NCBI GenBank assembly: GCA_014905635.1
Contig: JABVCE010000022.1
Location: 620,001 to 684,000, forward strand
From: Scenedesmus sp. PABB004
Lineage: Eukaryota
Direction: 5' to 3'
Length of the DNA stretch: 64,000 nucleotides
Shown one piece after another: positions 42,703 through 59,664 of this stretch. The notes under the pieces were generated by a model. That model did no database searches. It was given only the letters and a program-made list of their open reading frames with translations, and was not told where the DNA came from. The number at the start of each line of letters is the position of its first letter. Position 1 is the first letter of the stretch. The position numbers and the translations under genes were made by a program.

Positions 42703-43630
42703 GGTTGCGGCAAGTTGGCTCGTAATCGCTTACAATTTGAGCCGCCGCTGCCGCCGCACGCACCAGCGGCAGCCTCCGCCCGCCGCCACCTGCCGCAGGG
42801 CTCCGCCCCGATCCTCGAGGGCTATCCCGGCGTGCCGCCGCGTGTCATGTCGGCGCGCGCCCTGCCAGTCTGTCCATCGATGTGACGCGGGCGATTGCCA
42901 ACAACACAACACGTCTCTCGATCCCAAAAACAAAACTTTGCACAGAGCTTTATTTGGTGGCGCGCGCAGGGCACAGGGCGCGGTCGGCCGTGAATTTGGC
43001 CGCCGCGCCGCCGCGCGTCCGCGCGCGCCACAAGAGACTCCAACCGCAGCAGGCGCGGTGCCGCGCCGCCGCTTCTTTAGGGGGAGGGGTGCAATGCTTG
43101 GCTCGCGGCAGCACATGGTGATGGGCTGGGAGTGGCATGACGACGACCGGCCGGCACGGCGCAACGCAAACTTCGCTCGCTCGCTCACTCTCCGACCAGC
43201 CGCACCAGCAGCGGCAGCAAGAAAGCCAGGCGCAGGCCGCGCTGCACGCCGCCGCGCTTGTGTACAGTGGCGCCAGCGCGCAGCCGCGGCGCGCGCGAGG
43301 CGAGGCGGGGCGAGGCAGGCGCCCGGCGCCGCCGCCGCAGGCTGAGCGCGCCAGCGCACTGCGGCGGCGGTGCGCGCCGCCCCATCCCGGCATCCATCCA
43401 GATTGCGTTAGAAGTGGGATTCAGTGCGCCCTCGGCCCTCCCGGGCGGCGCGCCGGCAGGCACATGGCCTGCCCGCCGCCGCCCGCCGGCCCCCACCCAG
43501 CCCGCCCCCGCCCGCCCACCCAGCCCAGACGCGCAACCCAGGCGGCGGTGGCAAAAAAGCAAAGGAAAAAGAGGAGGCAAGTGCGGGCGGCGCGCGCGCG
43601 GCCGCGCGGCCGCGCGGGGGCGGGGCCCGC

Positions 43631-45149
43631 TCACATGCAGGGCACCGCGAGGTCGGCGGCGAGGCCCGCGTGCAGCGCGCCGCCGCCCGCGGCCGCGCGC
43701 ATCGCCTCCTCCGCCGCGCGCCAGGCGTCGAGCTCCTCCTTCTTGGCGAAGCGCCCCTTGATGCGCGGGCGCACCTCCGCGTACGCCTTGCGCGACGCGT
43801 AGCGGATCGTCTTCTCGTAGCGCCGGTTCTTGCGCTTCTCGCGGTACCGTGCGACGCGCTCCGCGCGGCTCAGGCTCTCGCCCGCCGCGTCGCCATACTT
43901 GACCAGCCGCACGCCGCCGGGCGCCGGCGCGGCGGCCGCCGCGGCCGCCGCGCGCGAGCGCGGCGCCGGCGCGGGCGGCGGCGCCGCCACGGGCGCGGGC
44001 GCGACGACGGCCGGCGACGGCGCGGCGTAGTGCGCGGCGGCCGCGGCGTACGCGAGGTGGGCGTAGGTCGAGTCGTAGGGCGCGGCCATGTAGGCCGCCG
44101 GCGCCGCGAGCGCGGCCGGCTGCCAGGCGCCGAGGTGCGGCAGCGTCGGGCTCACGGTCGGCACCATCGCCGGCATGGCCGCGGGTGCGGGCGCCTCGGG
44201 CGCCTCGGCGTTGAGCGGGACCATCGCGGGCACGGCCGCGGGCTCCTCCGCGCGCAGCGGCGCGGGGAGGTCGGGCAGGGTGAAGCCGGGGAAGCTGTCG
44301 TCCTCCCAGCAGGGCACCGCGAGGGCGTCGAGCTCGGCGGCGCTGGGCTCGGGGTCGCTCACGGTCGGCACGAGGCCGTCGCTGGGCGCGTCGCTGAGGA
44401 TGTCGGTGAAGTCAAAGCCCATGTCCAGGCGGTCCAGCCACGTCGCGTCCATCTCGAGGCCCTGGCGGCCGGGCGGACGGACGGGGCGGCGGCAGCGCGT
44501 GAGCGCCGGGGGAGCGCGGACGCCGGAGGAGCGCGGCGGCCGCGGGCCGAGGCGCTGCTGCTGCTGCTGCGGGGTGCGGGCGCGCACCTCGAACTCCTTG
44601 CCAAACACGGTCTTGGTCAGCGCGTCGTTGTCCAGCACGGGCGCCGCCGCCGGCGCAGCCTCGGCCGCGGGCGTGGCGGGCTGCGCGTGGCTCTCGCTCG
44701 CGCTGTCGGCGGCGTGGGGCACGTCCATCGCGGCCTCCTGCGCGCGTGCGCGGGCAGGAGCGCAGGGGGGCCAGGGTCAGGGAGCGCCGCCACTGCGGCC
44801 GCCGGCGGGAACGCGCGCCGACCGACCCCGCTCGCTCAGCGGCGCGCCGCGCGGCGCGCACCTGCTCGGCGGCCGCCTCCGCGGCGGGCACGATGGTGTG
44901 GCGCGCGGCCAGGGGCGTGCTGTGCGCGGTGGCGTTGCAGCCGTTGCAGAGGAAGGCGGCGTCGTTCTTGCAGAACACGGCCGATGGCTTGGCGTGGCAG
45001 AGCTCGCACACGCGCACGCGCGCGTGGCGCCCGGCGAGCGCGTTGGAGCTGTGCACCGTCACGTCGCACGCCTTGCAGAGGAAGGCGTCATCCGCGGCGC
45101 AGAAGAGCAGCGCCGGGCCCGCGCACACGACGCAGGATGGCGCTGCCAT
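43631..45149 (-). CDS. CO: CONSTANS-like B-box/CCT transcription factor; 3 exons
   Basis: Two B-boxes (CVVC...[30 protein letters not shown]...[12 protein letters not shown]) and the CCT domain [42 protein letters not shown]. Confidence 0.93.
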
Positions 45150-45631
45150 GCCGATAGGGCGCGGCGGGGGTCTCCGCGGGGCTCAGGCGACGGTGGTGGG
45201 GCCGCTGCGCCGACTCGGGCGCTGCAGGGCCTCGCGGCGGCGACGGGCGAGGCGCGGCGGGCGTGGTAGCGTCCTGGCCACTCGCTGGGTCGAGGCGCGC
45301 GCGCGGCTCCGGCGTGCCGCTGACAGCGTCCAGGGAGCGTGCTGGGCGCGGGGGAAGCGGCGAGAGTGCGCGCGGCGGACCCGGCGCGCAGCGAAGGCCG
45401 CAATAAGTGCCCACCGCGCTGAGACCGCGTCTCAGCGCCGTAGCCGCTGCCGCCGCCCCCGCGCGCAGTCCCTGGCCAGGAACGAGGGTGGATTGTCGCC
45501 AATAGCGCATGTTGATCTGGCGGCGGCGGCGGCTGGGCGGCACCTGGGGGCTGGCGGCCAAGTGGGGTCAAGCGCAGCCGCAGACAACTTTGCACCTCAC
45601 TCGCAACACGATCCGCTGACCAGGCAGGCGC

Positions 45632-45864
45632 TCAGCGCTTGGGCAGCGGGCCCACCTGCGGCGCCGTCGGTGGAGCGCCGCACGTGTGCGCAACGCGCAC
45701 CACCACCTCGCTGACGCCGAGGTGGTTGGACTCGACCTCCACCTCGCCCTGGCAGCTCGGGCACGAGCACCGCAGGACGGTGCGGCGCAACGGGCCCTCC
45801 TTGACATGGGAGTGCGCCACTATCCAGCCGTCAAACATGCGGCCGATGCCCGGCGGGTGCGCGC

Positions 45865-45896
<32 letters not shown>

Positions 45897-46205
45897 ACCG
45901 CCGCCGCCCACGCCGCCGCCGCCGCCCACGTCGCCCCCGCCGCCGCCGCCTGCTGCGGCTGCAGCAGCCCCGGCGCGGGGGCCCGGGCAGCCCGCCCAGG
46001 TGCGCCGGCACCGGCGCCGGCGTGGGCGGACTGGGCGCGCGCGGCGTGGCGGGGGCGGCAGCTGCTGGCACGCCGCCCGCCTGCTGCGGCGCGCCGCCCG
46101 CCTGCTGCAGGTGCGGCGGCAGCAGCTGCGGCTGCGGCTGTGCGCCGAGATCGAACGCGGGCAGGCCGCTGGGCCAATTGCGCGCCAGAAGCAGCTGCGC
46201 ACCGC
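45632..46205 (-). CDS. Exon encoding a Q/P-rich region and a WRKY/GCM1-like C2HC zinc finger; gene ends unresolved
   Basis: A poly-Q tract precedes FDGWIVAHSHVKEGPLRRTVLRC-SCPS-C-X21-H-T-C. Apparent frameshift near 45980. No clear 5' exon. Confidence 0.45.
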
Positions 46206-46335
46206 CTGAACCGCAGCGCGCCCGGCGCCGGGTTTGCGCACGCCGCCGCCGCGGCGCCCAGCACGGCGCGCTGCGCGCCGCAGGCGAGGCCTTCTCACCG
46301 AGGGCCTCGGCCTGATCGGGAGAACACCCGCGCTG

Positions 46336-46604
46336 GGCGGCCTGGCCAGCTCGCGGCCGGCGGCGGCGGCGCGGGTGCGCCGCGCGCGCAGCGCCGACCG
46401 GCGAGCGGTGGCGGCGGCGGAGGCGGCGGCGCGCGCGGTGCCCCCGCGCCGGCGGGGCGCCGGGGAGTCGGCCCGGCGGGCGCCGGCGGTGCGCGTGAAC
46501 CGCCGGCGTCTGGCGGCGCGGTTCGCGGTGGCGCCCACTGCAGTCTCCGTTGGCCCGCCCGGCTGCTCGAGCGCCCCGGCCGGCTCGGGTGCAGATCGCT
46601 CGCC
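46336..46604. repeat. ~265-bp repeat, left arm (inverted relative to 51557-51817)
   Basis: Shares, in order, the blocks ggcggcctggccagctcg, gcgcgcggtgcccc, ccggggagtc, gcgtgaaccgccggcgt, actgcagtctccgt and cccggctgctcgagcgccc with the reverse complement of the right arm. Confidence 0.9.
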
Positions 46605-46887
46605 TCTCCGGCCCGCCCGCCCTCCCTCGTCCCCGGAGGCCGTGCCGCAGGTGACCGGGGGCAGTACCGCCGCTCAGGAGGCCTGATCGCCGGCATTGCC
46701 GGCCCGCTGCGCGCCCGTGGGCGGCGAATGCGCGGCTCGTAGGCTGGCCGCGCCCGCCCTCGCTCCTGCGCGGGGCATGCGCGCCCTGGATCACGCTCCC
46801 ACACGCACAGCTCCCTGACAGACCCGCCGCGCCGTGTGTGGCCGTGTGCGCCCGCAGGCCGCGCGCTGCCGGGGGGAGCAGCAGCAG

Positions 46888-49800
46888 ATGGCCGACCGGG
46901 GGCGGGGCCGGGGGCCGCCGCGGGGCCTCGACTTCCCGGGGCGGCCGCTGGGGCGCATGCAGGACTTTGGCGGCCGCGCCATGGGCCGTGGTCCTGGACC
47001 GGGCAACCGACGTGAGCGCCGCGCGCGCGGCAGCGGCGCGTGCAGCGCAGGCCGGGCGCGCGCCCGGCACGCGGTCCGCGCCGACGCCGCGCGCCGCCGC
47101 CCGCCCGCCCGCGCGCCGCCGCCGCAGCCCTGGGCAGCCTGCCCCTGCGCAGCAGCAGCGGCGGCCTGGCGGGCATGGCCGGCGGCGCGCTCGGCGCCGC
47201 GCTCGCCGGCGGCGCGGGCGGGGGCGCCGGCGCGTCGGCGGCGGGCGGGCGCGGCGCGGGGCCGGACCACCGCGAGGTGCGCTACGCCGACGGCGTGCTG
47301 GCGATGATCAACGTGCTGCGCCTGCTCACGCTCGGCGGGCCGCGCACGTGGGACGCGGCGCTGCACAAGGCGGTGCGGGCGCGCGGGCGCAAACGTGGCG
47401 GCGCGCGCGCGGCGCGGGCGCCGGGGCGGCGTGGGCGCCGGGGCGGCGGCCGCCAGGGGAGCGCCCCCGCGCGCCGCCTGGCCGCGGCCGACCCGCGCCG
47501 CCGCTCACGCGGCCGCCGCAGGTGGGCATGCAGGTGGCGCCGCGGCCCGCGCCCGGGTGTGCGGGGCGTGAGGTCAACCTGCTGGTCAACCACTTTGCGC
47601 TGGGCCTGCCGCCGGGCGGCGCGGCGGCGGCCGTGTATGCGCTGAACGTGGCGCCCGCCGCCGCGGCGGACGCCGGCGGCGCCGACGACGGGGCGCGGCG
47701 CGTGCCGCGCGCGCTCGCGGCGCGCGCTGTGGCGGCGCTCGCGGCGCAGGCGGGCTGGCCGGCCAGCAGCTGGGTGCTCGTGGGCGACGACCGCCTGGCG
47801 GCGGCGCCGCCGCTGGCGGCGTTGCTGGGCGCCGCGGGCGTGCCGGGCGCGGACGTGGCGCTGGAGCAGCTGGCGCCGGCCGAGGGCGGCGCGCCGCTGT
47901 GCAGTCCCACTGGCGGCGGCGCCTTCACGGTGCGCCTGACGCACCTGGGCAGCCACGACCTGGCCGACCTGCGCGCGGCGGCGGCGGTCGACGCGTCCGG
48001 CAGCCCGCCGCTGCTGGACGGCGTGCGGCTGCTGGAGGCGCTGCTGGTCGCGGCCGCGCTGCAGCCGCCGCCCCCGGGCAGCGCCAGGGCGGCGACGCCG
48101 GCGGCCGCGGCGGGCCCCGCGGCGCCCGGCGCGCCGGCGCCGACGCCGCCGGTGCCCGTCCCCTCGCCGCCCGGCGGCAGCGGGCTCATGGGCCTCGCGG
48201 GCGCGGCGCCGCCGCCCGGCAGCGGCGCCGCGCCGGCGGGGCTGCTCGGCTTTGGCGGCAGCGGCAGCGCGCCGTCCGCGCAGACGCTTGGCGTCGGCTC
48301 GCCCGCGGCCGGCGGCGCGCTGGCCGCGGCGGCGGCGGGCGCGTCGCTGTCGCCGGCCGGCACGCCCGCCCCCGGCGGCGCGAGCGCGGGCGGCGCGCCC
48401 GCGGGCGGCGCGCTGGCGAGCGCGGCGCGCGTGGCGCGTGGCGACGCGGTGTACTGGCACGCGCCGGGCAACGCCGAGCTGCACGCGCCGCTGGGCGGCG
48501 GCGTGGAGGCCTGGCTCGGCGTGCGCCTGTGCGCGGCGGGCGCGCAGGCGGGCCCCGCGGCGGTGGTCGACCTCACCGCGGCGCCGTTCTTCGAGCCCGG
48601 CCCGCTGCCGCGCAGCCTGCCCGCGCTGCTGGGCCGCCCGGGCGGCCTGCTGCCCGGCGGCGAGCCCGGCGCCGACGCGGGCGCGGCCGGCCTCGCGGCG
48701 CTGAGCGAGGGCGAGGCGCGCCGGCTCGCGCAGCTGCTCACGGGCGTGACGGTGGAGGTCGCCCTGCCCGGCCGGCCGCCGCGGCACGCGCGCGTGCGGT
48801 CGCTGTCGCCCGGGGCGCGGGTGACACGTGGCTCACGCTCGACGGCTCGGCGGGGCCCGCGGCGGGGCCGCCCGGCGCGCGGGTCGACGTGGCGTCCTAC
48901 TTTGCCGCCGCGCACGGCGTGGCGCTGTCGGCGCCGCAGCTGCCCTGCCTCGACCTGGCGCGCCCGGGGCAGGCGGACAGCCGCTGGTACCCGCTGGAGC
49001 TGTGCAGGTGGGAGCTTGCTGCCGAGGGGATGGGGGGGGGGGTGGCAGGCAGGCCGCGGCGTGCCGCCGCGCCCGCCCGCAGCGCCCTCTGCTCACCCGC
49101 GCGCGCCGCGCCGCGCCGCGCAGCCTGCCGCCGGGGCAGCGCTACCGGGCGCCGCTGGACGCGGCGCAGCTCGCCGCGCTGGCGCGCCTCGGCGCCAAAA
49201 AGTCGACCGACCGCAAGGCCTGGCTGGAGGCGGTGCTCGCGCCGCTCGCGGCGGCCAGCGCCGGCGGCGGCGGCGGCGCCGCACCCGACGCGCCGGCGGC
49301 GCTGCTCGGGCAGGGCCCCGACGCGGCGGCGGCAGGCGCGGCGCCGGCGTCGCCCGGAGGCGGCGGCGGCGCGCCGAGCCCGCTCGCGGTCGCGGGCGTG
49401 GAGGTGGCGGGCGGGCTCGGCATCGTGCGCGGGCGCGTGCTGCCCGCGCCGCACCTCGCGTACGCGACGCCCGAGTGCTGCTACCCGGGCAGCCAGGGGC
49501 AGTGGAACGTCAAGACGCCCTGCCGCCTGCCCGGCTGCGCGCGCGTGTCGAGCTGGGCGCTGGTCGTGCTGCTGCCGCAGGCGTCGGTCGACGTGGAGGG
49601 CCCGTCGGGGGTGCTGCCCTTCCTGGCCGACCTGCTCGCCAGCCTCGGCGCGCTGGGGATCGACGCCGCGCTGCCGCCGATCGTGTACGAGCAGCCGGGG
49701 CGCAGCGTGCTGCAGCACCTGCGCGCCGGCGTCGACGCCGCGCAGAAGCACTTTGGCGCCAGGTGCGGGGCGGCGCGGCGCGCGCGCGAGGCCTCGCAGC

Positions 49801-51513
49801 GGCGCGCGGCGGCCGCGGCCGCGGTCGGCGCCGCGCTGACGCGCCCCTGCCGCCGCGCTGACGCGCCCCCGCCGCCGCACCCGCGCCCGGCCAGCGCGGA
49901 GCTGCTCCTGGTGATGCTGCCGGCGCGCAGCCCCGCGCTGTACCAGGAGGTCAAGCTCGCCAGCGACGGCGTGCTGGGGCTGCCCAGCCAGGTGCTCGTC
50001 GCGCCCGTGGCGGGCGTGGGCCGCGGCGCGGTGCCGCGCGGGCGGCTGCAGTACTGCGCCAACCTGGGGCTCAAGGTGCGGCGCGCGCGGCGGTGGCGGC
50101 GGTGGCGGCGCCAGCGGCTGCAGCGGCCCCGCCGCGCGCCGCGCCTCGCACTGCGGCTGCGCGGGGGACTGCGGCGGGCGGGCGGGCTGCGGCGCGTCAC
50201 GCGCGTGCGCGGCGCCTGACACACGTGTGCACGCCGCCTGCGTCGACGTCTGCGTGCCGCAGATCAACGCCAAGCTGGGCGGCATCAACATGCGCCTCGC
50301 GGGCAACCCCGACCAGGTCATCCCCGTCGTCGGCGGCCGGCCGTTCATCCTGGTCGGCGTCGCGCTCGCGCCGCCGCCGCTCAACGCGCCGCCCGGCACG
50401 CCCGCGGTCGCGGCGGTCGTCGCGAGCCGGGACCGCAGCCTCGGGCGCTACAGCAGCCGCGTGCTGCTGCAGCCCGGCGGCGGCGGCGGCGGCGCGGCCG
50501 TGGCGGGGCTGCGCGGCGCGGCCAAGGAGCTGCTCATCGACTTTTACCGCTCCAACGGCGGCCGCAAGCCCGAGGCGCTCATCGTGTACCGCGCGGCGCC
50601 CCGCGGCGGCGTGGACGCGTCGCTGCTGGCCGCCGAGTACGAGGCGCTGCGCGGGTGAGCCGCGCGGCGCGCGCGGGCGGGATAGGGGCGAGCGGCGGCG
50701 CGCGCGGCGGCGGGCGCTGCCAGCCAGCCCTCGGCGCGCGCGCCGGTCCCACGCGCGCCGGTCCCGCGCGCCGCCGCCGCGCCCCTTGACCCCCCGCCGC
50801 CGTTGCCGCAGCGCGTGCGTGGACCTGGAGGAGGGGTACTGCCCGCCCATCACGTTTGTGGGCGTCACGCGCGCGCACGGCACGCGGCTCTTCCCCGCCG
50901 ACCGGGACAACCAGGACAAGGCGGGCAACTGCCTGCCCGGCACGGTCGTGGACAGCGGCATCTGCCACCCCACGCAGTTTGACTTTTACCTCAACAGCCA
51001 CGCCGGCCTGCAGGGCCACAACAAGCCCGCGCACTACCACGTGCTGGTCGACGAGAACGGCTTCAGCGCCGACGGCCTCCAGCTGCTGACCTACTGGCTC
51101 TGCTACCTCTACTGCCGCTGCACGCGGTGCGCGCGCACGCACCCGCCACCGCCGCGGCGCCGGCGGGGAGCGCGGCGGCCGCAGCGCCCCGGCCGCCCGC
51201 GCGCGCGCGACCCCACGCGGCCACGTGCCGCCCCGCACGCGGTCGCAGGTCTGTGTCGGTCGTGCCGCCCGCGTACTACGCGCAGCTCGCGGCCGAGCGC
51301 GGCCGCCTCATCGCGACGGGGCGCGACCGCCTGTCCGGCGAGGACGCCGCGGCCGCGGCGGCAGCGGCGGGCGCGGCGGCGGTCGAGGCCGCGGCGGCGG
51401 GCGACGACGGCGGCGCCGCCGCCACCAACGGCCTCGAGCCGGGCGGCGAGGGCGAGCTCGAGCTCGAGCTGCGCGTGCACGCGCGCCTCGGCGGCAGCAT
51501 GTATTACGTCTGA
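46888..51513 (+). CDS. Divergent Argonaute (AGO-A), predicted slicer-dead
   Basis: MADRGRGRG start, LLVNHF (N domain), PAZ end VDVASYF...LPCLD...WYPLELC, GQWN, MID YQEVK...SQV...[14 protein letters not shown] and [39 protein letters not shown]. Catalytic positions are altered. 1-nt frameshift at ~48812. Confidence 0.88.
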
Positions 51514-51556
51514 GCACGGGCTGCACAGCCCGCGATCGGGCGGTAACTCGGACGCT

Positions 51557-51817
51557 GGCGAGGCGATCTGCGCGCGACGCGCAGCCGGCCGGGCGCTCGA
51601 GCAGCCGGGCGGCGGGCCACGGAGACTGCAGTCGGCGCCACTTCGAACCGAGCCGCCAAACGCCGGCGGTTCACGCGTGCCTCGGTCGCCGCCCGCCGGG
51701 CTGACTCCCCGGCGGCCCGCCGGCGCGGGGCACCGCGCGCGCCGCCGCCGCCGCCGCTGTGCTGCGCGCGCTGCGCGACCGCGCCGCCGCCGCGGGCCAC
51801 GAGCTGGCCAGGCCGCC
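51557..51817. repeat. ~260-bp repeat, right arm (inverted copy of 46336-46604)
   Basis: Its reverse complement aligns by eye along the length of the left arm, with small indels. Confidence 0.9.
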
Positions 51818-52223
51818 GCCGAGCGGTGACCCTGGCAGCAGGCGGCGCGTCCCATGCCCGCTCCGCGCGCCGCGCTGGCACGCGTGGCTGCGCGCGGGCG
51901 GCAGCGGACACTGAGCGGCGCCGCACCAGACGCGGCGCGTCCCTGGCGCAAGCGCGTTTGCGGACGGCCGGCGGTGACCAGGGAAACCGCAGGGGCGGGC
52001 TGTCGCGCGCCCACGCGCGCCACCGTCCCGTTCCGCAGGGCTCTCCGCGCTCGCGCGCCCGCTCGGTGGCGGGCGCGCCCGGCGCGCCTCGGCGGCACGC
52101 ACGCGGCGCAGCGGCATCGCACAGCCCACACTGAGGCGCCGCCGGCACGCCGCGCGCGCGCATGTGAGGCGCCGGCCCCCCGACCCGTCGCGCCGGCGCG
52201 AGCAGGCGGGACCTACGCGCAGG

Positions 52224-55200
52224 ATGGACCGCGGGCGCGGCCGCGGCGGCTACGGCGGCGGCCCGGGGCGCGGCGAGGGCGGTGCGCGGCGCGCTCGCGC
52301 GGGGCGCATCCCGCTCGCCTCTCCGTGGCACGGAGGGGCGTGGGCCGTCCCAGGCCGGCGCTGCCGCGCCCCGACCGTGCCCCGAGACGGCCCAGGCGGC
52401 GCGCGCGCGTCGCGGCGGCCCGCGCGCCCCGATCTCGGCGCTGAGCAGCGGCGCCGCCGCTGCTGTCGCGCGCAGGCTACGGCGGTGGCTACGGCGGCCC
52501 GCCCGGCGGCCGCGGCGGTGGCAGAGGTGAGCGAGGCGCCTGGGACGGGGACGCGCAGCGCCGTGGCGCGGCGGGCAGGGGCGAACTGGCGCGCGGCGCG
52601 CGGCGCGCCGCTCAGCAGCAAGCTGGCGCCCGCGCGGCGCGCCCCGCGCGCAGGCTACGAGGGCGGCGGCGGCCGCGGCGGCTACGGCGGCAGCGGCGGC
52701 GGCGGCTACGAGGGCGGCGGGGGCCGCGGCGGCGGCTACGAGGGCGGCCGCGGCGGCGGCTACGAGGGCGGCGGGGCCGCGGCGGCGGCTACGAGGGCGG
52801 CGGGGGCGCGGCGGCGGCTACGAGGGCGGCCGCGGCGGCGGCTACGAGGGCGGCGGGGGCCGCGGCGGCGGCTACGAGGGCGGCGGCGGCCGCGGCGGCG
52901 GCGGCTACGGCGGCGGCGGCCGCGGCGGAGGTGCGGCGCGCGGCAGAGCCGGTGGCGGTGGCGGCGGCGGCGGCGGCGACGGCGCGGGGGCGGCCGCGCC
53001 AGGCCGCTGCGCCCGGCCCCACGCTGCGCCCGCCGCCCCCGCTCCCCCCTGCGCGCACAGGCGGCTACGAGGGCGGCCGCGGCGGTGAGCGGCCGCAGCG
53101 CGCTGCGGGGCCCGCCAGCTTGCCGCCAGCCTGCCTGGCGCGGCCAGAGCCGCCGACCCGCGCTGGCCCGCTGCCACCCCCTCCTCTCTCTCCCCCCCTC
53201 CGCAGGCGGCGGCTACGGCGGCGGCGGCGGCGGCGACTATGGTGGCGGCCGGGGCGGCGGCGGCCGCGGCGACTTTGGCGGCGGCGGCCGGGGCGGCGGG
53301 CGCGACTTTGGCGGCGGCGGCCGGGGCGGCGGGCGCGACTTTGGCGGCGGCGGCCGCGGCGGCGGGCGCGACTTTGGCGGCGGCCGCGGCCGCGGCGGCG
53401 GCCGCGTGTCGGGCGGCGACATGCAGCTGCCCCTCGACCGCGCGCTGTCGGAGCTCTCGGCCGCGTTCTCGCGCGTCAGCGTGCGCGGCCCCGAGGTCGT
53501 GCGCTGCGCGCGCGGCAGCGTCGTGCCGACGCGCGCGCTGCGCTCGCGCGCGGGCGGCGAGGGCACCGCGGGCACGTCCATCGCGGTGCGCGCCAACCAC
53601 TTTTCGCTGAGCCTCAACGCCAGCCAGGCCTTCCACTACGACGTCAGCATCGACCGCCTGCTCAGCGAGGAGGAGGCGGCGCGCGCCTCGCGCCGCAAGG
53701 CGCCCGCGCGCGCGGGTGAGGCCCGCCGGCCTGGCGTCCGTGGGAGGGGGGGGGGCGCACGCCCCGAGGGGCGCGCAGGCCCGCCTGCGGCGCGCGCCGA
53801 GCCGCGCCCCGCCGCCCCGCCCCGCGCCGGCCGCCGCCGCGGCGCGCCCCGCAGGCCCCGACCGCGGGCTGCCGCGCCCGATGGTGCGGCGCGTGCTGCT
53901 CGCGCTGAGCGCGCAGGAGGGCTGGGGCAGCGTCGGGTGGGCGAGCGACTGGGGCAAGAACATCTACGCGCCGTCCGCCTTCCTCGGCGTCGGCGGCGGC
54001 GAGCCGCGGCTCTACACCGTGCGCACCCAGTTCACCGCGCCCGACGGCAGCGCCGTGGACAAGACCTGGACGGTCGCGATCAAGTACGCCGCGACGGTCG
54101 ACCTCAGCGCGCTGTCCGCCTACATGGCCGGCACCGAGGCGGACGAGGAGATGCCGCGCGCGGCCATCCAGGTGCTCGAGGTCGTCATGCGCTCCGGCGT
54201 CAGCGGTGAGACCCACACCCGCGCCGCGCGCGCAGCGCGGCGCGCCGGCCGCCTCGCCGCCGGGCCTGCGCAGGCGCCGACGCCCGCCCGCTGCCCGCCC
54301 GCCTCGCGCCCGCCGCGCGCGCCGCGCGGTGCGCTGCAGCGCGTGAGAACGCGCTGGTGATCGGGTCGAGCGTGTTCTTCCACGTCCCGCGCGACCCCAA
54401 CCTCTACATGGCCCTCCCCGGCGGCGCCGAGGCGTGGGCGGGGTACCGCCAGGCGGTCAAGCCGTGCCAGGGCGGGCTGACGCTCAACATCGACCTCGCC
54501 GCGACCGCCTTTCTCACCAGCGGCCCGCTCCTGCGCGTCATCTGCAGCGTGCTCAACCTGCGCAACCCCGGCGAGCTCATCGGCCCGCAAGGCCTGCCGC
54601 CGCGCGCGATGCGCCAGCTCAAGGAGACCGTGCGCGGCGTGCGGGTGCGCCCCGCGCGCGCCCGTTCCTGCGCGCCCGCTCGAGCCCCTCGCGCCCGCGC
54701 GCCCGTGCTGCGCGCCGGTGCTGCCGCCGCCGACGCGGCGCCGCCTGCCCGCCGCGGTCAGGTCGCGTACCACTGCCCCACGGGCGTCATCCGCAACAAG
54801 CTCGTGCGCGAGATCGGCAGCCGCGGCGCGGCGCAGACGATGTTCAAGCTCGACGACGGCCGCGAGGTGCCGCGCGCGCCGCGCCGCTCGCAGCGCGCCC
54901 CCCGCTCACGCGCGCCCCCGTCCGCGCACCGCCCGCGCCGCCGCAGGTGAGCGTGGCGGCCTACTTTTCTGTCACGTACAAGCTGCAGCTCCAGTTCCCC
55001 GGCCTGCCCCCGCTCAACGTGTCGAGCCAGCCCGGGCGCAAGGTCTGGGTGCCCATGGAGCTCTGCCAGTGAGGCGGCGCGCGCGCGGCGGCGGGAGGCG
55101 CGGCGCGGCGGGAGGGCTGCGGCGGCCGGGCGACGCGCGCGCGGCGGCGCGGCCGTGCGGGCGGGCGCCGCCGCGCCGCGCCGACGCCGCCGCGCGCGCC

Positions 55201-57714
55201 GCCGCGCAGCGTCGTCGCGGGGCAGCGCCGGCGCATGCTGAACGAGGCGCAGACGACGGGCATGCTGCGCTTTGCGGGGCTGCGCCCCGACGAGCGCGGG
55301 GCGTACCTCACGCAGGTCATCTCGCGCGACGACCTCGGCGGCTTCAACAGCGGTGAGCCACCGCGCCCCCCGCCCGCCCGCCGCGCCGCGCGGCCGGCCG
55401 CGCCGTGGGGCACGCCGCGCTCACGCCGCTGCCGCCGTGCCGCGCGCGCGCGCGCGCCAGACCCCGCGGTGCGCGCGTTTGGCATCCAGGTCGAGACGGC
55501 GATGAAGACGGTGCAGGCGCGCGTGCTCAACCCGCCCCTGCTCGCGTACGGCAAGCCCGAGGCGCTCACGCCCGGCACGCGGGTGCGCCGCGCCGCCGCC
55601 TGTGTGCGGCCGCCTCGCCACCCGCGCTGCTGCGCGCGCCGCTCGCGCCGCCGCCCTCGCCGCCGCCCGCGCCGCCCGGGTCGCCGCCCGCGCCGCCGCT
55701 CCGCCGACGCCGCCCCGCGCCGCTGCGTGCGGCAGGGGTCGTGGAACCTGCGCGAGGTGCGCTTCCCTGCGGGCGTGGTCATCAGCAGCTGGGCGTTCTG
55801 CAGCCTTGTCGACCCGCAGTACCTCGTGCCGGACGGCGAGACGGGGACGCAGACCTTCCTGCGCGACCTCGTGCGCATGTGCAACAGCACCGGCGTCGAG
55901 TGCCCGCCGCCGGCTATGGGCCCCTGGATCCCGCGCGCCGACCCCGAGAGCCTCATCCGCGCCGCCGCCGAGGCCGCGACGGCGCACTTTGGCAGCAAGT
56001 GCGGCGCGGCGCGGCGCGGCGCGCGCGCGGCGGGGCGCCGACGCCCGCGCGGCGCGCGGCGGGGCGCCGACGCCCGCGCGGCGCGCGGCGCGGCCGGCGC
56101 GCAGGTGCCAGATGGTGCTGGTGCTGCTTGAGCGCAAGCAGACGAGCGGGTCGAGCCCCTACGCGTTTGTGAAGCAGGCGGGCGACAGCGTGATGGGCCT
56201 GCGCACACAGTGCTTTGCCGCCGACAAGGCGGGCGTGGGCCGCAACGCGCGCCCCCCGCGCGGGCGCCAGCAGTACTGCGCCAACCTCGCCATGAAGGCG
56301 CGCGCGCGCGCGCCGCGGGGGCAGGGGCGCTGCGGGCACCGGGGGCGGCGCGCGCGGCAGCAGACGGCTGCTGCGCCTGGCGCTCACCGCGCGCGCATGC
56401 GGGGCGCGCCGCCCGCCGCCAGATCAACACCAAGATGGGCGGCGTCAACGTCAAGCTCGTCGACGACCCCGCCGCCGTGAGCGCCCGCGCCCCGCTCGCA
56501 CGCGCCGGGCAGCGCGCGCCGCGCGCCGCCGCGCGCCTCCGCGCCTCCGCTCCGCCGCGCGCCCACGCCCCGCGCGCGCCGCCGCGGCCGCGCGCCGCAG
56601 CCCAAGGCGGTGCCCGTGGTGGGCACTGTGCCGTTCATGATCTTTGGCGCCGACGTGACGCACCCGACCTCGTTCAACCCCGACGACCCCTCCATCGCCG
56701 CCGTGTGCGCGAGCTACGACCGCACGCTCGGGCGCTACATGAGCCGCGTGCTGCGCCAGGCGCGGCCGCGCCGCCGCGCGCGCCCCGCGCGCGCCGCCCG
56801 GCCCGCCGCGCGCCGCCCGCCCGGCCCGCCCCGCGCGCGCCCGGCGCTCCTCCCCCGAGCGCCGCCCGCCCCGCCCCGCCCCGTGCTTTGCAGGGCCACC
56901 GGCAGGAGGTGATCGGCGCGCTGAAGGACGTCGTCGCCGACATGCTCAAGGAGTTTCACCGCCGCAACCGGGGCCACAAGCCCGAGGCGATCATCTACTA
57001 CCGCGACGGCGTCGCCGACAGCCAGTTCCCGGCCGTGCTGGAGCACGAGTACACCGCGTTCCGCCAGGCGCGCCCGCACGCGCAGCCGCGCGCGCAGCCA
57101 CGCGCGCGCGCGCGCGCGGCCGCGCTGCGCACGACGCACGCGCAACGCGCGCGCCCGCGCCGCTCGGCCGCGCCGCGCCCGCGCCGCTGACCGCCCCCCG
57201 CCGCGCCCGCGCCCCATGCGCGCAGGCGTGCTACAGCCTGGAGGAGGGCTACTGCCCGCCCATCACGTTTGTGGTGGTGCAGAAGCGCCACAACACGCGG
57301 CTCTTCCCCGCCGACCGCGCGGGCGCGGACAACAGCGGCAACTGCCTGCCCGGCACGGTCGTGGACAGCGGCATCTGCCACCCCACGCAGTTTGACTTTT
57401 ACCTCAACAGCCACGCCGGCCTGCAGGGCCACAACAAGCCCGCGCACTACCACGTGCTGGTCGACGAGAACGGCTTCAGCGCCGACGCGCTGCAGCTCTT
57501 CACCTACTGGCAGTGCTACCTCTACTGCCGCTGCACGCGCAGCGTGAGCTACGTCCCCGCCGCCTACTACGCCCACCTCGCCGCGTTCCGCGGCCGCCTT
57601 ATGAAGCGCGAGGGCGAGGAGGGCAGCGTCGTGTCGAGCGGCAGCGGCGAGCGCGCGCTCGAGGTGCTGCCGATCCGGGACGACTACGCCAACCAGTGCA
57701 TGTTCTTCGCATGA
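52224..57714 (+). CDS. Argonaute (AGO-B) with intact DEDH tetrad and long RGG/GY N-terminus; multi-exon
   Basis: [53 protein letters not shown] (D 56652), HRQE (E 56906), YYRDGV (D 57005), [17 protein letters not shown] (H 57574) and C-terminal MFFA*. Confidence 0.96.
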
Positions 57715-58064
57715 GCGCGGCGGCGGCGCCGCGGCGGCAGCGGGATGCGTCGCGGGCGGGGCAGGGCGGGGCGGGGCGGGACGGGCCGCGCCGTGTGTGC
57801 GGCCGGCGCCCGCGCGGGGAGGGAGCAGGGGACGCACAAGCCGGAGCCCGGGGCGGGGGGACACTGACCAAGCCTGCACCACTCACGCCCCCTGGTGAGG
57901 CGAGCACTTTTTCACGCAGCACACGCAGCCTCACTCCCCACTGCCACTCCACTCCCGCCGGCCGGCGGCGGGCGCCGCGCGGCCGGGCGCCTTCAAACGC
58001 ACGCAGCGGGCGGGGACCGGGTCGGGGGGGGGGGGGGGGGTCGGGCGTACACCTAAACTAGAGT

Positions 58065-58069
58065 TGTAA
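58065..58069 (+). promoter_or_regulatory. TGTAA, candidate poly(A) signal of AGO-B
   Basis: First TGTAA seen downstream of the stop at 57714. Confidence 0.45.
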
Positions 58070-58211
58070 CGCCACCAAGTTGCGGCTCAGGCTCAGTGGC
58101 TGGTCGGCGCCCGCCCGGCAGCAGCCCCCCGGGCCCAGCCGCCCTCGCCTGCGCCGCCGGGCGGCCCTGGTGCGGGTTGACCGGGCTCCGCAGTCGCCGC
58201 GCTGTTGCCAG

Positions 58212-59664
58212 CGCACGCCGTCTTCGGCGGCGCCGAGGACGACGGCGCCGGCGCGGCGGCTGCTGGCATCAACACGGGCGACCCCGCCGCCGCTGTGGCG
58301 GAGCTGCCCGAGGACGTGGAGCAGGCCAAGGGTGCGCTGAGCGCGCACGCGCCCCGGCACCGAGCACAGCACGCGCTATGCGCGGCCAGCCGCCCCGGCC
58401 CCCGCGCCCGCACACCGCGCCCGACCCCCCGCACGCGCGCCCGGCCGCGTGCAGCCGAGGTGCTGCCTGGCAGCGACGCGGAGATCACCGACTGGATGGC
58501 CGACACGCTTGACGCCGCAGCCGGCGCCGCCGCGGAGGGCGGGGGCGGCAGTGGCGGTGGCGTTGGCGGGCTGCGGTTCATCAACTTCAACACCGCCTCG
58601 ACCTACAACCCAGGGCTGGGCTTTTTCGTCGCGCTCGACGGCGCGGCGCGGCTCGCACGCCTGCTGCCCGCGGCGGGCCTGGTGTCGCTGAGCCCGCCGG
58701 GCAGCCTCTACGCCGACACGCCGGTCGTGGACGACGTGAAGGTCACGCTCGACTTTGACCTCTCCGCGCCCCTCGCAGCGCCGGTGGGGGGTTAGGCGCC
58801 CTTCTCGCGGCGCCGCCCGCGCAGGCCCCGCCGCCGCAGCGCGCGCCGCCCCACCCCTCGCCCCCCTCGCCCCCTCGCCCCCCGGCCCCGGGCCCCCCGC
58901 GCCGCCCCGCTGCCGCTGTCAGTGCTGGCTGGACGGCTACCAGCAGTTTGCCGGCGTCCCCTACGCGCCCAGCCTGGTCGCCATCATCGACGTTCGCGCG
59001 GTGCTCCCAGGCAGCGCCAGCAGCGCGCCCGTGGGCTGGGCGTGCCTGCCCGTGTTTGAGCGCGCCGGGCGCCACGTCGCGAGCGGGACGCACCACCTGC
59101 CCCTCTTCCAGGGCGTGCCCAGCGCGCAGCTGCTCGCCGACCTGGCAGCCGGCGACCCCGACGAGGCCATGGCCGCCGCCATCCGGGTGCGCCGGCGCAG
59201 CTGCCCGCGCGCCGGGCGCCCGCGCGCGCGCGGCGCGCGCCACCCCCGCGGTGACCTCTGCCGCCGCCGCCGCCGCCGCCGCCGCTGCCGCGCGCGGCGC
59301 GCAGGCGGGGCGCGTGCGCCCGAGCCTGGAGTGCTCCAGCGTGCTGGCGCGGCTCATGTGCGGCACGCGCCAGGGGCAGCTCGAGGCGCCGGCCTGGAGC
59401 CTGCCGCTGGCGGAGCTGCGGCTGCCGCGCTACGTGGCGAGCGAGCTGGGGCCGCGCTTTGTGGGCGAGGCGCGCAAGGCCATGCGCAACAAGACCTACG
59501 CGCAGGCCAAGCCCCCGGCCCTGAGCGACGCGGCGTGGGTCGACAGCATCGCCGACACGCTCATCAAGGTCGCCGGCCTCGACGCGGCGCTGCCGGGCGG
59601 CGGCGCGGACAGCGGCGACGAGGGCGAGGGCGAGGGCGGGCGCGAGGCAGGCGGCGCGGCCTAG
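58212..59664 (+). CDS. Hypothetical protein with C2-like beta domain; 5' end unresolved
   Basis: Coding-like exons with GT-AG boundaries: YNPGLGFFVALDGA...SLSPPGSLY, WLDGYQQF...IIDVRAV...VGWACLPVF...SGTHHLPLFQG. Stop at 59664. Confidence 0.6.

Follow-up and report, generated by a model that had tools for sequence, protein, structure and literature searches.

In a 64,000-nucleotide stretch of genomic DNA from the green alga Scenedesmus sp. PABB004 (contig JABVCE010000022.1, positions 620,001 to 684,000; hereafter the window, with all coordinates counted from its first base), two Argonaute genes, AGO-A and AGO-B, lie in tandem. AGO-B has an intact catalytic tetrad and AGO-A has lost every residue of it. 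We consider it likely, with a probability of roughly 0.7, that AGO-A is intact and belongs to a clade of catalytically dead Argonautes specific to Scenedesmaceae-related green algae, and that it likely loads a guide and does not cut. The alignments and trees described here show a catalysis-specific loss in an otherwise constrained Argonaute. Both genes have their closest named relatives in the chlorophycean alga Tetradesmus obliquus; the host is eukaryotic, and the G+C content is about 79% throughout the window.

AGO-A lacks the DEDH/DEDD tetrad of slicer-competent Argonautes: at the positions of human AGO2 D597, E637, D669 and H807 it carries A, A (within a poly-Gly loop), A and Q. It also has TRAH where QKRH stands in AGO-B. 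The four AGO-B residues lie in GADVTHP (D 56652), RQE (E 56906), YRDGV (D 57005) and YYAH (H 57574). A preliminary description of this DNA had claimed that all four tetrad positions are lost in AGO-A and that the tetrad is complete in AGO-B. Alignment to AGO2 and AGO10 confirmed the loss and placed no acidic residue at any AGO-A catalytic position, and D, E, D and H are all present in AGO-B. The gene bounds and motif coordinates given there proved exact by a codon check, with both genes on the forward strand. The D597, E637 and D669 placements come from HMMER alignment to the human AGO2 and Arabidopsis AGO10 chains. For H807, where the match of the window exon is weak (E 0.58), the placement comes mainly from the alignment of the T. 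obliquus ortholog to AGO10 and from the multiple alignment.

The same substitutions recur in other algae. A search with the AGO-A exon at 50263-50654 returned the T. obliquus protein A0A383VYD8 (P0001, 1294 residues) and three fragments at 61-72% identity, with the next match at 46%. P0001, annotated at its source only as 'Piwi domain-containing protein', is the ortholog of AGO-A, with 70-73% identity over the kept alignment columns. It shares the N-terminal RG motif, both insertion sites and all four catalytic replacements, which read GLALAP, a poly-Gln loop, YRAAS and YYAQ. An exhaustive HMMER search across 1.84 billion representatives yielded 183 matches with E up to 0.001, of which we inspected 13, together with P0002-P0004. 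Eleven of these sequences are fragments with catalytic losses (P0002, P0003, P0004, P0134, P0135, P0136, P0138, P0139, P0145, P0154 and P0178), and five are relatives that keep the first Asp (P0137, P0140, P0141, P0143 and P0144). The D597 position is covered by 11 dead-type sequences, 10 with Ala and one with Ser. The D669 position is likewise covered by 11, without an Asp in any of them, and both sequences that reach the H807 position have Gln. The glutamate-finger loop is of very variable length across the dead-type clade, of low complexity and rich in Gly, Gln, Ala or Ser. Orthologs with the AGO-A substitutions, which the preliminary description had suggested looking for, thus exist in T. 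obliquus (P0001) and as 11 fragments. By comparison, AGO-B and the T. obliquus protein OEZ86_005871 (P0022) are 79-80% identical over the kept alignment columns.

Three further searches were uninformative: a homolog search with the N-terminal exon 47129-47371 gave no matches, low-complexity words crowding the query; an ESM Atlas look-up with this exon gave no usable matches; and one metagenome scan for ortholog DNA returned three loci, from an unrelated organism (31% GC) with a distant Argonaute. Separately, P0137 (533 residues, from the sister group) retains three of the tetrad residues, D, D and H (GIDVYHP, YRDGV and YYAH), and has HRTP at the RQE finger; here part of the tetrad may have been lost independently.

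Beyond the active site, AGO-A is recognisable as an Argonaute. The Pfam Piwi model scores 116 bits at 50816-51124 and 35.5 bits at 50263-50655 (cut-off 28.9). Among solved chains, AGO10 matches by HMMER at E 5.5e-40 and AGO2 at about 6e-35, and solved PIWI-clade proteins match much more weakly, at E 1e-13 or weaker. We rejected membership of AGO-A in the PIWI clade or among the worm WAGOs: it nests inside chlorophycean AGO-clade sequences (support 97/96). The order N-L1-PAZ-L2-MID-PIWI is seen in P0001, of which four collinear HMMER stretches match Arabidopsis AGO10 (E 6.9e-102), and the spliced AGO-A model is collinear with 13 Argonautes in the multiple alignment. P0001 scores 228 bits for Piwi and 49.6 bits for PAZ, above the cut-off. 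The AGO-A PAZ piece at 48817-49005 reaches 21.2 bits against a cut-off of 28.8; here the domain is split by a frame break, to which we return below.

The guide-binding residues are also in place. In human AGO2, Y529, K533, Q545, K566, K570 and R812 anchor the 5' phosphate of the guide. The five MID pocket codons of AGO-A correspond to the first five of these, and R 51298, in the last exon, corresponds to R812; an intron (50076-50262) interrupts the MID pocket span. These assignments are based on the AGO2 alignment, the alignment of the ortholog to AGO10, the multiple alignment and a codon check; the weak match of the AGO-A MID to AGO2 (E about 0.1-0.9) agrees in its coordinates with the multiple alignment. 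All eight MID columns that are invariant in 13 canonical Argonautes are kept, as are six of seven such PAZ columns. In PIWI, 62 of 74 are kept in both full-length dead-type proteins, and the 12 changed columns lie in or beside GADVTHP, YRDGV and QKRH. The earlier claim of a retained MID 5'-phosphate pocket therefore stands, with all six pocket residues at aligned positions, and the PAZ core appears to be retained as well.

The two Pro/Ala/Gly insertions noted previously are also confirmed: they are real when compared with the 13 canonical Argonautes, and their sites match in the T. obliquus ortholog. The first site is occupied in P0001 by a different sequence, and the insertions are Gln-rich in P0001 and Gly/Ala/Pro-rich in AGO-A. 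A conserved N-terminal helix of AGO-A was considered as a unique feature and set aside, counterparts being present in canonical algal Argonautes.

We built phylogenies at several levels of care. In a MID-PIWI tree of 30 selected sequences, made by a quick method with the catalytic columns retained, all 13 dead-type sequences form one clade with a single change of state and a Shimodaira-Hasegawa-like approximate likelihood ratio (SH-aLRT) support of 100. A more careful tree, of 26 sequences selected among the fetched proteins and with a gene conversion tract (see below) masked, places the pair of AGO-A and its T. obliquus ortholog as sister to a canonical clade containing AGO-B, P0022, P0024, P0020, the Raphidocelis sequence and P0141 (support 97/96), and a quick tree of 40 sequences agrees with it. 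The chlorophyte tree called for in the preliminary description thus gives one dead-type clade, sister to the canonical clade of AGO-B. In the 26-sequence tree the stem of the AGO-A clade measures 1.16 changes per site, compared to 0.11 for the sister stem. Since the split between the window alga and T. obliquus, the path lengths are 0.42 for AGO-A and 0.26 for AGO-B. As far as branch lengths record it, the tempo of AGO-A is a burst followed by constraint.

Domain identities between the window alga and T. obliquus, taken from the multiple alignment with one ortholog pair per gene, are for AGO-A 48% (N), 52% (L1), 60% (PAZ), 69% (L2), 72% (MID) and 85% (PIWI); the corresponding AGO-B values are 77%, 81%, 72%, 72%, 65% and 90%. 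The losses shared among orthologs, the conservation of MID and PIWI and the clustering of changes at the active site support the earlier suggestion that catalysis was lost selectively and not by random decay.

As assembled, AGO-A has a break of frame in a G-run, which the preliminary description did not mention. We can dismiss an intron across 48812-48815: the interval from 48757 to 48938 is free of AG, and conserved residues would be removed. A 252-nt contig from a freshwater metagenome (run X3, record 23) spans 48684-48934 and carries one extra G after 48811, which restores the AGO-A frame; it shows no other difference. AGO-B has breaks of a similar kind. Its exon 3 (52654-52930) is 277 nt long, its flanking phase-1 introns demand a multiple of three, and two 29-nt units of its 30-nt repeat each lack one base in a G or C run, making two apparent single-base losses. 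Because AGO-B, a functional canonical gene, shows losses of the same kind, homopolymer assembly error is the simplest cause of all three breaks, and the AGO-A frameshift is most likely such an error or a strain variant. With X at the break, the spliced AGO-A model has 1215 residues and no in-frame stop. Its G+C content at third codon positions (GC3) is 0.97 over the whole coding sequence, compared to a G+C content of 0.88 in the introns, and GC3 stays at 0.94-1.00 in each of twelve 300-nt coding blocks.

How might such a gene have arisen, and what would it do? At least three intron positions are common to AGO-A and AGO-B (K|IN.K, R.|AC and LELC.|), so AGO-A is a DNA-level duplicate of an intron-containing gene and not a retrocopy. 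We propose that a canonical intron-containing Argonaute was duplicated, with AGO-B continuing that lineage; that AGO-A would have changed very fast on its stem branch, losing all four RNase-H-like DEDH residues in this burst as the finger loop turned into a variable low-complexity loop; and that purifying selection would have acted on it ever since. Because AGO-A keeps the MID pocket, apparently the PAZ core, the C-terminal end and most invariant PIWI positions, it would most likely still load small RNA that carries a 5' phosphate. Its action would need no cleavage: AGO-A might bind targets and, with the help of partners, repress or destabilise them, or it might simply hold small RNAs.

Holding small RNAs could also be the main purpose of the protein. 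As a decoy or buffer, AGO-A would load small RNAs chiefly to keep them away from the slicer AGO-B or to make them more stable, much as Arabidopsis AGO10 sequesters miR165/166 from AGO1. Guide anchoring kept while catalysis is lost would fit this role, as would the adjacency of the two genes and the weak conservation of the N domain, the least conserved domain of AGO-A and one that Argonautes need to unwind duplexes. However, residues cannot tell a decoy from an effector, and the sole tie between AGO-A and AGO-B function is their adjacency, which is expected of paralogs after duplication and is no sign of joint function; we regard a decoy as unlikely, though worth keeping in mind. A pure protein scaffold that binds no small RNA would make sense of the large low-complexity insertions, the poorly conserved N and L1, and the sub-threshold Pfam scores of P0001 for ArgoN, L1, L2 and MID. 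Yet such a protein would hardly be expected to keep the Y, K, Q, K, K, R pocket, all the invariant MID columns and nearly all those of PAZ, and the conserved C-terminal end as well, and we find this reading very improbable.

The frameshift, the absence of all catalytic residues and the long stem branch could instead mark a decaying duplicate of AGO-B, the more so as chance open frames are expected at 79% GC and RNA runs are missing from the runs matching the locus. Against such a pseudogene stand orthologs from other species that carry the same substitutions, with 85% PIWI and 72% MID identity, and the concentration of changes at the active site. Every splice site is undamaged, the coding sequence shows strong codon periodicity, the otherwise identical metagenome contig has an open frame, and AGO-B shares similar single-base losses; on this balance decay seems highly unlikely. 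A still more improbable alternative, which we can hardly credit, is that AGO-A cleaves RNA through acidic residues recruited from elsewhere. Acidic residues do follow shortly after the lost D669 (D in AGO-A, EE in YRAASEEG of T. obliquus), but their positions are not conserved across the dead-type clade. Ala, Gly or Gln has taken over in the first Asp strand, at the glutamate finger and at the His position, and the neighbouring invariant V, H, G and V are also changed.

Several points weigh against our preferred reading of AGO-A as an intact, guide-loading, non-cutting Argonaute. The predicted small-RNA binding and mode of silencing come from residues alone, and the MID and L2 exon matches to solved structures are weak when taken singly (E 0.08-0.9). 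N and L1 are far less conserved in AGO-A than in AGO-B, and constraint was judged at the protein level, from identities and branch lengths. Of the dead-type sequences, just two are complete, and the remaining 11 are fragmentary. The gene as assembled carries a frameshift, the contig that repairs it is a single one with a depth of 4.3, and open frames are weak evidence in DNA of 79% GC. Finally, the sequencing runs that match the locus comprise three freshwater metagenome DNA runs and no RNA run.

A slicer-dead Argonaute is in itself a known kind of protein; what we did not find described is this clade. Human AGO1 and AGO4 and the worm WAGOs, like AGO-A, are Argonautes without a working DEDH centre. 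They keep guide binding and silence without cutting, through GW182 or worm-specific partners. They represent independent losses in animals, and AGO1 and AGO4 retain part of the tetrad, whereas AGO-A retains none of it, nor the finger loop. To our knowledge, neither GW182 nor the worm-specific partners are known in green algae, and the cutting centre is preserved in nearly every Argonaute of the green lineage, although Chlamydomonas is known to have slicer-independent repression. A conserved paralog without any catalytic residue, next to a canonical AGO, could be a convenient entry point for studying how green algae silence genes without cutting, and it is relevant to transgene silencing in Tetradesmus and Scenedesmus production strains. 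As a concept, non-slicing Argonaute paralogs are already familiar from animals and some grasses.

In grasses, one clade of AGO18 paralogs is reported to lack a conserved catalytic triad, which was read as a new function other than cleavage (bioRxiv 10.1101/2022.01.18.476847). This clade resembles AGO-A as a lineage-specific loss of catalytic residues within Viridiplantae. It belongs, however, to the land-plant AGO1/5/10/18 subclade, unrelated to the chlorophycean clade of AGO-A, and the study included four chlorophytes only. Among chlorophyceans, AGO1 and AGO2/AGO3 of Chlamydomonas reinhardtii are described as having putatively functional catalytic tetrads (Plant Cell 2023, PMC10226591); their N-termini are rich in RGG. 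The sister group of the AGO-A plus AGO-B clade includes the CHLRE_04g214250 protein, and the tetrad motifs of P0040 are GADVTHP, RQE, YRDGV and YYAD. The supplementary Argonaute tree of the same paper includes Chromochloris and Raphidocelis proteins and no Tetradesmus Argonaute. Our full-text literature search returned no description of a slicer-dead chlorophyte Argonaute in the text it covered.

The coordinates of the features discussed here are collected in Table 1. For each splice join we compared in-frame GT/GC..AG pairs and took the one with the best alignment to T. obliquus P0001 (AGO-A) or P0022 (AGO-B). The AGO-A junction 49007/49124 was taken directly from the sequence and not by homology; the N-terminal exons of AGO-B were likewise taken from the sequence itself and are less certain than its core exons. 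GC-AG ends fit best for three of the 12 AGO-B core introns (56298, 56760 and 57068, with donors GCGCGC or GCGCGG). This share of GC donors is unusually high and is possibly tied to the extreme G+C content, the junctions being set by homology only.

Table 1. Features of the AGO-A/AGO-B locus, in window coordinates.
Feature	Position	Strand	Remarks
AGO-A gene	46888..51513	+	ATG to stop; 8 exons; 7 GT-AG introns of 116-187 nt
AGO-A exons 1-4	46888-47011, 47128-47372, 47522-49007, 49124-49762	+	
AGO-A exons 5-8	49895-50075, 50263-50654, 50812-51126, 51249-51513	+	
Pro/Ala/Gly-rich insertion between N domain and linker 1 of AGO-A	48060..48430	+	without counterpart in 13 canonical sequences
AGO-A frame break, frame 2 to frame 1	48812..48815	+	G-run, 1 base short of open frame; in exon 47522-49007
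Gly/Ala/Pro-rich insertion in linker 2 of AGO-A	49250..49400	+	from multiple alignment
MID 5'-phosphate pocket codons kept in AGO-A	49941..50274	+	Y 49941, K 49953, Q 49989, K 50073, K 50272
Ala codon at human AGO2 D597 position	50362..50364	+	GVALAP instead of GADVTHP
Poly-Gly/Ala loop replacing glutamate-finger segment	50473..50499	+	Ala 50494-50496 aligns with E637
Ala codon at D669 position	50593..50595	+	YRAAP instead of YRDGV
Gln codon at H807 position	51283..51285	+	YYAQ instead of YYAH
Converted tract in AGO-A exon 7	50924..51074	+	151 nt, 100% DNA identity to AGO-B 57337-57487
AGO-B gene	52224..57714	+	canonical DEDH tetrad; candidate ATG 52224, stop ends 57714
AGO-B N-terminal Gly/Arg/Tyr-rich (RGG/YEGG) exons	52224-52281, 52476-52526, 52654-52930, 53061-53084, 53206-53715	+	
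AGO-B exon 3 repeat, two short units	52770..52815	+	29 nt each in 30-nt repeat
AGO-B core exons 1-6 of 12	53855-54205, 54340-54644, 54762-54866, 54947-55068, 55210-55352, 55461-55582	+	
AGO-B core exons 7-12 of 12	55736-55998, 56105-56297, 56423-56476, 56601-56759, 56894-57067, 57226-57714	+	
AGO-B copy of 151-nt tract	57337..57487	+	
Inverted repeat, left arm	46336..46604		about 260 nt; blastn E 6.5e-71
Inverted repeat, right arm	51557..51817		starts 44 nt past AGO-A stop; ends about 400 nt before AGO-B ATG
CONSTANS-like gene	43721..45140	-	two B-boxes and CCT; Pfam zf-B_box 55.5 bits, CCT 60.3 bits

The two Argonaute genes share one tract of identical DNA. Its flanks are diverged, and its residues in AGO-A are AGO-B-like when compared to T. 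obliquus and other orthologs. An identical tract in two deeply diverged genes, with AGO-B-like residues, points to recent gene conversion from AGO-B into AGO-A; it is the comparison with T. obliquus and other orthologs that indicates this probable direction. The T. obliquus ortholog P0001 does not have the AGO-B-type tract. The tract ends before the TRAH and YYAQ sites.

An inverted repeat brackets exactly AGO-A, its arms being about 80% identical by blastn with their one 18-nt indel counted, and more so in a gap-free core. The arms occur nowhere else in the 64-kb window and match nothing in Rfam; more widely, an Rfam scan of 43000-59000 came back empty up to E 0.1. The repeat could be the footprint or the mediator of an inversion, or it could form a hairpin if its arms were co-transcribed.

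On the far side of the left arm lies the CONSTANS-like gene, head to head (divergent) with AGO-A. In another alga, the gene model P0003 fuses a dead-type Argonaute PIWI to a CONSTANS-like ortholog (51-86% identity), so the Argonaute/CONSTANS-like neighbourhood is shared with another species. If P0003 reflects genes in the same-strand order, the Argonaute apparently has the opposite relative orientation there, and we infer, as no more than that, that an inversion between the repeats would account for it.

It is tempting to imagine a fuller scenario, which we hold to be rather doubtful. AGO-A would be a dedicated, obligately slicer-independent Argonaute, kept probably since before the split of Scenedesmaceae and Selenastraceae, with a variable low-complexity finger loop (Gly, Gln or Ala) that would serve partner recruitment or condensates. 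It would sit in a cassette between the inverted repeats. These could invert AGO-A with respect to the neighbouring CONSTANS-like gene and AGO-B; were both arms transcribed together, the two transcript ends could pair into a Dicer substrate for self-regulation.

Two minor observations concern the locus as a whole. The poly(A) signal TGTAA occurs six times in the window, compared to 3.75 expected, which is not above chance and is uninformative; the only copy near the gene pair is at 58065-58069, about 350 nt past the AGO-B stop, and there is none between AGO-A and AGO-B. Contigs from the freshwater metagenome runs X1-X3 match parts of the locus with 0-1 differences (e.g. 49446-49718, 50392-50460 and 50538-50688), which places the alga, or a close strain of it, in fresh water. 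The sole difference of these contigs within the AGO-A coding sequence, 49637 C>G, is synonymous.

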